DNA of 64,000 bases from Escherichia coli (lineage in GTDB: Bacteria > Pseudomonadota > Gammaproteobacteria > Enterobacterales > Enterobacteriaceae), in the NCBI RefSeq assembly GCF_003334355.1, contig NZ_QOWP01000019.1; one strand, written 5' to 3'. Shown piece after piece: positions 1-51,505 of this stretch. Below the pieces are notes generated by a model. That model was not told where the DNA came from. It worked only from the letters and a program-made list of their open reading frames with translations, and ran no database searches. The position numbers were made by a program, and so were the translations under genes. The stretch's first letter is position 1, and each line of letters begins with the position of its first letter.

Positions 1-35
1 TATTCGCTTATTTCCTGGCGATCTCCTACAGAGTC

Positions 36-53
36 TGTAAGAGATCTCTCACA
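36..53. promoter_or_regulatory. 18-bp imperfect palindrome tgtaagagatctctcaca, matching the UvrY/SirA response-regulator box known upstream of csrB
   Basis: Palindrome read directly; csrB lies immediately downstream of syd in K-12, which would be just beyond the window start. Confidence 0.5.
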
Positions 54-72
54 ACCAGATGGGGTATTTGGA

Positions 73-618
73 TTACAGAAGAGGCTTAAGTTGATTAAGG
101 AATTCCGCAAGATTTGAGGCTAAATGCGTCCGTTTACGTGTTCCCAGCGTCTCTTTGCACACTTCACCGGAGAGATTACACACCGAGATGACCTCTAACT
201 CTTCTTCCAGCGTCGCGATAAATAGCGTGGGCGGCAGTTTTAGCCTTTTCTGAGTCACCAGATGACCAATCAGATTTTCCTGCACCCGACGGAAGTCGTC
301 TTCACTCCAGGTTTGCAGCAATGTCAGTTTGATATCGCCAAACTGCGCGTGCATATCCCCGGCAAACTGAGTCGTATAAAAGGTATGAATTGTGGGTTGT
401 ATCACAATATCAAAAGCGCGTTCAACCGCGTTTACATTTTGTTCCCCGGTAAACGGCTGGGGTTGCCAGTATACGGCATCTTCGGTAGTTGAAATAATGC
501 ACGGTGAAGGAACACCGTACAGTTCCTCACTTAACGGCCAGCTTTTATGCTCTTCATGCCACGCATCGCAGTAGCGTGCAGTAAAATCTTTCAGGGCTTG
601 TGCGGTCAAATCGTCCAC
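73..618 (-). CDS. syd: SecY-interacting protein Syd
   Basis: 181-aa ORF recognised as Syd; same length as the K-12 protein. Confidence 0.93.
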
Positions 619-685
619 TAATTTCTCTCTTCACTTAAACCAGATACACTTGTCGTTTAGTTTATCTGGTTTATGACGGTGAAAC

Positions 686-1534
686 ATGTCTTCTTATGCA
701 AACCATCAGGCACTTGCGGGCCTGACTCTTGGAAAATCAACCGATTACCGGGATACCTATGACGCCAGCCTACTGCAAGGCGTTCCACGCAGCCTGAATC
801 GCGACCCGCTGGGTCTGAAAGCGGATAACCTGCCTTTTCACGGTACGGATATCTGGACGCTGTATGAACTTTCCTGGCTGAATGCGAAAGGTTTGCCGCA
901 GGTCGCTGTCGGTCATGTTGAACTTGATTACACCAGCGTAAATCTGATTGAGTCGAAGAGTTTTAAGCTCTATCTCAACAGTTTTAACCAGACGCGTTTT
1001 AATAACTGGGATGAGGTGCGCCAGACGCTGGAGCGCGACTTAAGCACTTGCGCTCAGGGTAAGATTAGCGTGGCGTTATATCGTCTTGATGAACTGGAAG
1101 GCCAGCCGATAGGTCATTTTAATGGCACTTGCATTGATGACCAGGATATCACTATCGATAACTATGAATTCACTACTGACTATCTGGAGAATGCCACCTG
1201 TGGTGAAAAAGTAGTGGAAGAGACGCTTGTCAGCCACCTGCTGAAATCAAACTGCCTGATCACCCATCAACCAGATTGGGGTTCGATCCAAATTCAGTAT
1301 CGTGGACGCCAAATTGACAGAGAAAAACTGCTGCGTTACCTGGTCTCATTCCGTCATCACAACGAGTTCCACGAACAGTGCGTGGAACGCATCTTTAATG
1401 ACCTGTTACGCTTCTGCCAGCCAGAAAAATTGAGCGTTTACGCACGTTATACCCGTCGTGGCGGTCTGGACATTAACCCGTGGCGCAGTAATAGCGATTT
1501 TGTCCCATCGACCACAAGACTGGTTCGGCAATAA
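686..1534 (+). CDS. queF: NADPH-dependent 7-cyano-7-deazaguanine reductase (queuosine biosynthesis)
   Basis: 282-aa ORF recognised as QueF (YqcD). Confidence 0.93.
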
Positions 1535-1645: not shown

Positions 1646-3010
1646 TTGATTACACATATTAGCCCGCTTGGCTCCATGGATATGTTGTCGCAGCTGGAAG
1701 TGGATATGCTTAAACGCACCGCCAGCAGCGACCTCTATCAACTGTTTCGCAACTGTTCACTTGCCGTACTGAACTCCGGTAGTTTGACCGATAACAGCAA
1801 AGAATTGCTGTCTCGTTTTGAAAATTTCGATATTAACGTCTTGCGCCGTGAACGCGGCGTAAAGCTGGAACTGATTAATCCCCCGGAAGAGGCTTTTGTC
1901 GATGGGCGAATTATTCGCGCTTTGCAGGCCAACTTGTTCGCGGTCCTGCGTGACATTCTCTTCGTTTACGGGCAAATCCATAACACCGTTCGTTTTCCCA
2001 ACCTGAATCTCGACAACTCCGTCCACATCACTAACCTGGTCTTTTCCATCTTGCGTAACGCTCGCGCGCTGCATGTGGGTGAAGCGCCAAATATGGTGGT
2101 CTGCTGGGGCGGTCACTCAATTAACGAAAACGAGTATTTGTATGCCCGTCGCGTCGGAAACCAGCTGGGCCTGCGTGAGCTGAATATCTGCACCGGCTGT
2201 GGTCCGGGAGCGATGGAAGCGCCGATGAAAGGTGCTGCGGTCGGACACGCGCAGCAGCGTTACAAAGACAGTCGTTTTATTGGTATGACAGAGCCGTCGA
2301 TTATCGCCGCTGAACCGCCTAACCCGCTGGTCAACGAATTGATCATCATGCCAGATATCGAAAAACGTCTGGAAGCGTTTGTCCGTATCGCTCACGGTAT
2401 CATTATCTTCCCTGGCGGTGTGGGTACGGCAGAAGAGTTGTTGTATTTGCTGGGAATTTTAATGAACCCGGCCAACAAAGATCAGGTTTTACCATTGATC
2501 CTCACCGGCCCGAAAGAGAGCGCCGACTACTTCCGCGTACTGGACGAGTTTGTCGTACATACGCTGGGCGAAAACGCGCGCCGCCATTACCGCATCATCA
2601 TTGATGACGCCGCTGAAGTCGCTCGTCAGATGAAAAAATCGATGCCGCTGGTGAAAGAAAATCGCCGCGACACTGGTGACGCTTACAGCTTTAACTGGTC
2701 AATGCGCATTGCACCAGATTTGCAAATGCCGTTTGAGCCGTCTCACGAGAATATGGCTAATCTGAAGCTTTACCCGGATCAACCTGTTGAAGTGCTGGCT
2801 GCCGACCTGCGCCGTGCGTTCTCCGGTATTGTGGCGGGTAACGTAAAAGAAGTCGGTATTCGCGCCATTGAAGAGTTTGGTCCTTACAAAATCAACGGCG
2901 ATAAAGAGATTATGCGTCGTATGGACGACCTGCTACAGGGTTTTGTTGCCCAGCATCGTATGAAGTTGCCAGGCTCAGCCTACATCCCTTGCTACGAAAT
3001 CTGCACGTAA
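1646..3010 (+). CDS. ppnN: Nucleotide 5'-monophosphate nucleosidase PpnN (YgdH)
   Basis: 454-aa ORF recognised as PpnN/YgdH. Confidence 0.9.
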
Positions 3011-51220: not shown

Positions 51221-51308
51221 AAAAAAAACCTGCGCATCCGCGCAGGTTGGTGCAAGAGACAGGGTACGAAGAGCGTACCGAATAATCTCACCAATCAATA
51301 CCTCTGGG
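51221..51308 (-). ncRNA. omrA: OmrA small RNA (RygA)
   Basis: Minus-strand sequence cccagaggtattgattggtgag...cctgcgcggatgcgcagg plus U8 matches OmrA from recall. Confidence 0.92.
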
Positions 51309-51422: not shown

Positions 51423-51505
51423 AAAAAAAAACCTGCGCATCTGCGCAGGCTGGTGTAATTCATGTGCTCAACCCGAAGTTGACTTCACCTATCAATACCT
51501 CTGGG
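51423..51505 (-). ncRNA. omrB: OmrB small RNA (RygB)
   Basis: Minus-strand sequence cccagaggtattgataggtgaagtc...cctgcgcagatgcgcagg plus U9; shares 5' and 3' ends with OmrA. Confidence 0.92.

Follow-up and report, generated by a model that had tools for sequence, protein, structure and literature searches.

Carbon metabolism, motility, biofilm formation, and virulence are under the control of the Csr global regulatory network, whose main input is the step from BarA–UvrY to csrB. The 64,000-nucleotide stretch of Escherichia coli DNA analyzed here (hereafter the window) opens with 72 nucleotides that are wholly intergenic and are followed by the syd stop codon at 73–75 on the minus strand. This short region contains an 18-bp imperfect palindrome, which a preliminary description had taken to be the BarA/UvrY (SirA) box of csrB, with the gene itself just outside the window start. 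We asked whether the palindrome is that regulatory site, where csrB and its promoter lie relative to it, and whether the same DNA could be explained in another way.

The inverted repeat at the window edge

The palindrome reads TGTAAGAGATCTCTCACA on the plus strand and TGTGAGAGATCTCTTACA on the minus strand at positions 36–53, just as the preliminary description had written the sequence and its reverse complement. It is symmetric in eight of nine base pairs and is separated from the syd stop codon by 19 bp. Such symmetry was rejected as evidence for the site because 18-bp palindromes with at most one mispair occur in the window at about the chance rate (11 observed versus 8.1 ± 3.6 expected from first-order Markov simulations). 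The same count favors the reading of the element as a functionless chance palindrome in intergenic DNA, against which the identity of its sequence has to be set. A full-text literature search with the 18-mer returned the study of Zere et al. 2015 (PMC4682653), in which the csrB UvrY site was mapped at nucleotide resolution, and the E. coli csrB UvrY repeat published there, centered at −183/−182, is identical to the minus strand of positions 36–53 in 18 of 18 nucleotides. An 18/18 match to this footprinted site is expected by chance about 2 × 10−6 times in 64 kb under a uniform expectation. Positions 36–53 were also the sole match in the window when up to three mismatches to the published site were allowed (0.04 expected in shuffles), and they matched the family consensus TGTRAGN6CTYACA with no mismatch, with no second match in the 64 kb at one mismatch or fewer; further UvrY-like boxes within these limits (three mismatches to the site or one to the consensus) were thus absent from the window. 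The site is far beyond chance because of its exact identity to a known site and not because of its symmetry.

In the published work, which comprises ChIP-exo, DNase I footprinting, Northern blots, and barA and ihf mutants on an identical K-12 sequence, UvrY was crosslinked at csrB from −222 to −142, the repeat was protected from DNase I by phosphorylated UvrY (UvrY-P) only, and deletion of barA abolished UvrY binding in vivo (PMC4682653). The authors also noted a partly conserved additional sequence, TGTAGGAGA, 5 bp downstream of the repeat, and found that UvrY binding and csrB expression are both optimal only with IHF, for which a putative site is placed, with no coordinates in the text, in the interval separating the repeat from the promoter (PMC4682653). 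For the present DNA, UvrY-P binding, BarA dependence, and the IHF requirement are taken from this published work. The element is an already known UvrY (SirA/GacA-family) site and adds nothing new biologically, and window positions 22–53 are almost certainly the upstream activating sequence of the E. coli csrB small-RNA gene. The features of the element and its neighborhood are listed in Table 1, where the ChIP-exo region was mapped by setting the csrB start site at position 1362 and window position 1 at position 1501 of locus L001, the corresponding region of E. coli E2865.

Table 1 Coordinates of the UvrY-binding element, its neighboring genes, and related loci. Positions are those of the window unless a locus (L) is named.
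Feature	Position	Strand	Basis or remark
18-bp inverted repeat	36–53	−, towards csrB	Exact match to published UvrY-P site; −174 to −191 from csrB start
Extra UvrY half-site TGTAGGAGA	22–30	−	Read from sequence; 5 bp promoter-side of inverted repeat
Window equivalent of upstream UvrY ChIP-exo crosslinking region (−142 to −222)	4–84		PMC4682653 coordinates, mapped
Start of spacer from UvrY site to IHF site and core promoter (both beyond left window edge)	1–21	−	L001 sequence
syd (SecY-interacting protein)	73–618	−	ORF; RefSeq annotation of identical DNA
queF	686–1534	+	ORF; RefSeq name from identical DNA
ppnN	1646–3010	+	ORF; RefSeq name from identical DNA
GGA-rich RNA loci (Alcanivorax, Halomonadaceae, Kangiella, Hahellaceae)	L005 6140–6500; L016; L056; L007; L046; L048; L060; L064; L117; L122; L026; L091		

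Position of csrB in genomes that share the window edge

Because csrB is off the window, we examined an identical genome, that of E. coli E2865 (L001), and the genome of K-12 MG1655 (L002). Every one of the 5,426 complete E. coli genomes in the collection has a match to window positions 1–700, at 100% in many cases; E2865 is 100% identical, with window position 1 at L001 1501, and positions 1–80 are identical to K-12. In the genomes identical to 1–700, syd, the repeat, and csrB follow one another in this order on the minus strand. A full-length CsrB (Rfam RF00018) was detected at L001 994–1353 on the minus strand with 380 bits and an E value of 1e-111, and likewise at the equivalent place in K-12, where the annotation puts csrB (2924156..2924524, minus) directly downstream of syd (2924735..2925280, minus), the gene order on which the preliminary description had relied. 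A search of the whole window at the Rfam gathering threshold gave no CsrB because the gene is outside the window. Mapped onto L001, the annotated 5′ end of K-12 csrB (2924524) falls at position 1362, the G of GTCGACAGGGAG. This places the csrB start 139 bp outside the window, from where the gene extends leftward for 369 nt. Relative to this start, the repeat (K-12 positions 2924698–2924715) extends from −174 to −191 with its center at −182.5, compared with the published −183/−182 (PMC4682653).

The proposal that csrB begins just before the window is borne out by these coordinates, and the look beyond the edge that the preliminary description had recommended finds, in the identical genome, both full-length CsrB and the csrB terminator, the latter detected by a terminator scan. 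Neither of the two outcomes that it had named as contrary to its reading, an absence of csrB beyond the edge and a palindrome that fails to align to the UvrY site, was observed. Its statement that the csrB promoter lies upstream of position 1 is correct in window coordinates but not in the frame of csrB itself, where the box lies upstream of the promoter. A real regulatory site and a gene off the edge were thus recognizable from sequence alone.

Between the UvrY box and the csrB promoter lies an IHF core motif, AATCAAAATGTTG (WATCAANNNNTTR), at L001 1455–1467, which is approximately −93 to −105 from the csrB start and 34–46 bp to the left of window position 1, and its columns are conserved in a 15-species alignment. 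The −35-like hexamer of csrB, TTGTAA, is at L001 1392–1397, approximately 104–109 bp outside the window. A simple promoter scan of L001 900–2250 found no σ70 consensus around csrB, where the promoter is weak; the missing consensus fits an activator-dependent promoter, the scan itself being uninformative. As csrB, the IHF site, and the promoter are all off the window, we infer their presence in the source genome from the other genomes.

Taken with the published data, this arrangement would work as follows. The sensor kinase BarA would phosphorylate the response regulator UvrY (UvrY/SirA/GacA family), and UvrY-P would bind the inverted repeat at 36–53 and probably the adjacent third half-site at 22–30, the sites being centered approximately 183 bp upstream of the csrB start. 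IHF would bind between the repeat and the promoter, at approximately −105 to −93, and bend the DNA, and the bend would let the bound UvrY-P reach RNA polymerase at the weak σ70 promoter. Transcription of csrB would then proceed leftward on the minus strand from a start 139 bp outside the window, and the GGA-rich CsrB RNA would sequester the RNA-binding protein CsrA. The looping contact with RNA polymerase was inferred by Zere et al., who proposed that IHF bending carries UvrY-P to the polymerase (PMC4682653).

Two TGTAAG half-site-like motifs (gtcTGTAAGcgccTTGTAAGac) were seen at L001 1391–1409, approximately −29 to −47 of csrB, where they overlap the −35 region. They fall within the downstream region of UvrY ChIP-exo crosslinking (−56 to +25), reported to lack the inverted repeat (PMC4682653). 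The sequence CTTGTAAGAC in the region of L001 1391–1409 is conserved in Enterobacteriaceae.

Comparison with characterized sites placed the element in a known series. The K-12 csrB repeat (PMC4682653) is the same element, alike in the 18-mer, the distance to the start site (−182.5), and the half-site TGTAGGAGA and without any sequence difference, except that the window ends 139 bp short of the csrB start. The SirA site of Salmonella enterica csrB carries the same 18-mer, centered at −182/−181, together with the extra half-site and an intervening IHF site (PMC4682653), whereas the flanking intergenic sequence of this other species diverges. The E. coli csrC site is bound by the same regulator, is likewise far upstream, and has been footprinted with UvrY-P; by contrast, its repeat, TGTGAGACATTGCCGATA, is far less symmetric, and csrC has no IHF site and is IHF-independent (PMC4682653).

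Conservation of the box and its association with GGA-rich RNAs

Small RNAs that sequester CsrA/RsmA are activated by GacA-family regulators in other bacteria, including rsmY, rsmZ, and rsmX in Pseudomonas and csrB, csrC, and csrD in Vibrio. The GacA/VarA boxes (TGTAAGN6CTTACA) share the consensus and the logic of the csrB box, although their target RNAs differ in length, number, and distance, and many are unrecognized by Rfam.

Within E. coli, the arrangement is nearly invariant. A 631-bp query running from csrB through the intergenic region and the box to the 3′ end of syd matched without a break in 5,403 of 5,426 complete genomes, and the syd–csrB interval was interrupted in the other 23. 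The 44-mer at window positions 18–61 was 100% identical in 4,407 genomes and had one or two mismatches in 873; in the one variant inspected, the change was at window position 55, outside the repeat. The regulator gene uvrY, which like barA lies outside the window, was present at 80% or more of its length in 5,419 of the 5,426 genomes.

Two genomes depart from this pattern. In NZ_CM187577.1, a laboratory culture of E. coli Nissle and one of the 23 interrupted genomes, ISEc52 (IS3 family) is inserted at approximately +18 of csrB (L124 2856–4300) and separates the body of the gene from its promoter and UvrY site. In NZ_CP015853.1 (E. coli O157:H7 ATCC 43889), a match to uvrY covers only 51% of the gene in one place, the record having two matching places, and it is annotated as 'LuxR C-terminal-related transcriptional regulator', which suggests that uvrY is disrupted in this strain.

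Across species, an exact search for TGTRAGAGATCTCTYACA in one genome per species gave at least 120 loci. As these were chosen by the exact box, conservation of the 18-mer among them was rejected as circular evidence, and only the flanks, namely, a GGA-rich RNA and the third half-site, provide independent evidence. Among the loci listed, all but one were from Gammaproteobacteria (Enterobacterales, Vibrionaceae, Shewanella, Halomonadaceae, Alcanivorax, Kangiella, and others). Rfam detected CsrB beside the box in all 14 enterobacterial species tested, with the box center 175–206 bp from model position 1, and in 7 of 14 other loci tested. At least 18 GGA per 350 nt were counted on one flank of 92 of the 125 box occurrences among the matches listed, compared with a background of 3–6, and the median distance from the box center to the first GGA was 175 bp among the same matches. 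In Vibrionaceae, Shewanella, Halomonadaceae, Alcanivorax, and Kangiella, the identical 18-mer stands beside genes for GGA-rich RNAs. A chance palindrome would explain neither the distance to CsrB, kept in 14 of 14 enterobacterial species, nor an association with GGA-rich RNA genes over several gammaproteobacterial orders; identity to the published site and conserved position refute this reading, to which we attach a negligible probability.

The third half-site, for which the search pattern did not select, was found as TGTrrGAGATC in all 47 enterobacterial loci with a spacing of 5 nt (4 nt in a few). A weaker GTrrGa appears at the same spacing in the consensus of 45 loci where a GGA-rich RNA is present and syd is not adjacent. 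The comparison therefore makes two modest additions to the known site: all Enterobacterales sampled have kept the third half-site, and the 18-mer marks short GGA-rich small-RNA genes missed by Rfam in Halomonadaceae, Alcanivorax, Kangiella, and Hahellaceae.

In these last loci (Alcanivorax, Halomonadaceae of Vreelandella/Halomonas, Kangiella, and a Hahellaceae MAG), the 18-mer lies approximately 110–175 bp upstream of a short GGA-rich RNA of approximately 110–160 nt. At the end of the RNA, a GC-rich hairpin precedes a T tract in the Alcanivorax, Kangiella, and Hahellaceae loci, and the Halomonadaceae segments examined end at a GC-rich stem. Rfam at E ≤0.05 gave no Csr/Rsm family on the four loci searched from Halomonadaceae, Alcanivorax, and Kangiella (L005, L007, L026, and L048). 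These RNAs look like RsmY/RsmZ-like small RNAs outside the current models.

Other loci differed in their organization. Two exact boxes 500–1,640 bp apart were seen in each of five loci from Photobacterium and Shewanella (L027, L062, L073, L069, and L103); in the Photobacterium loci L027, L062, and L073, a separate GGA-dense RNA accompanies every complete box, which indicates CsrB-type genes in tandem. The distance from syd to the box is 1.2–2.3 kb in Vibrionaceae and Photobacterium; therefore, the syd–csrB linkage extends beyond Enterobacterales. The only non-gammaproteobacterial 18-mer among the matches listed, at L044 14541–14558 on an uncultured Porphyromonadaceae contig, has no GGA-dense neighbor and is probably a chance match or from a mis-binned contig.

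The third half-site, the 3′ end of syd, and other features of the window

The neighboring gene syd, on the same strand as csrB, is context and lies outside the regulatory element. In a rival explanation, the element is a hairpin at the 3′ end of the syd mRNA, a terminator or stabilizer, instead of or besides a protein-binding site. Its 12-bp stem, GAGAUCUCUUACA / UGUAGGAGAUC, would form in the minus-strand transcript between the third half-site and the promoter-side half of the repeat, beginning approximately 30 nt after the syd stop codon, and the minus-strand RNA of window positions 1–75 has a predicted folding energy of −21.8 kcal/mol (z = −3.1 versus shuffles). It also speaks for such a hairpin that syd adjoins the box in 47 of 47 enterobacterial loci and that the variable positions 4–5 of the third half-site are always purines, with which pairing with U would persist. 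However, no U tract follows the stem, and a syd terminator at the box is disfavored because the terminator scan that found the csrB terminator made no call there. The 18-mer and the weaker GTrrGa recur at the same spacing in the 45 loci where a GGA-rich RNA is present and syd is not adjacent. Covariation was not seen: the box half is CTCACA in eight loci, and the partner base pairs in four of these eight. Moreover, the complementarity is a necessary product of three half-sites of one motif, and the DNase I footprint covers the hairpin sequences as DNA (PMC4682653). We consider a syd hairpin very unlikely and retain the UvrY-binding site as the reading of the element.

A second role of the UvrY site itself is also conceivable. 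The layout of three half-sites is present in 47 of 47 enterobacterial loci and in a weaker form in Vibrionaceae and others, and syd ends 20–90 bp from the box in the Enterobacterales sampled. The same DNA might thus encode a 3′-terminal hairpin of the syd mRNA in Enterobacterales in addition to binding UvrY or, in a variant of this idea, the third half-site might recruit a further UvrY dimer into a higher-order looping complex; we regard this as improbable, if a little less so than the hairpin explanation above. Were the hairpin role true, syd read-through and UvrY occupancy would affect each other.

Several other features of the window were recorded. An inverted repeat at 636–673, with 15-nt arms TAAACCAGATACACT / AGTTTATCTGGTTTA that are 93% complementary and separated by an 8-nt gap, sits between the divergent genes syd and queF, immediately before the queF ATG (686). 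Folding of the plus-strand RNA of positions 625–700 gave −21.9 kcal/mol (z = −4.8), and the repeat could be an operator or a hairpin of the queF 5′-UTR. At the Rfam gathering threshold, the whole window contained GcvB at 18034–18239 (+, 199 bits), two tandem OmrA/OmrB copies at 51221–51308 (−) and 51424–51505 (−), one tRNA at 22725–22798 (+), and ES036 (CssrF) at 21255–21297 (−), all of which are usual for this region of E. coli and were expected. Another 18-bp palindrome with one mispair, TGTTAAATGAATTTAACA, is located at 17922–17939 in the gcvA/gcvB region, approximately 100 bp upstream of gcvB, and may be a regulator binding site.
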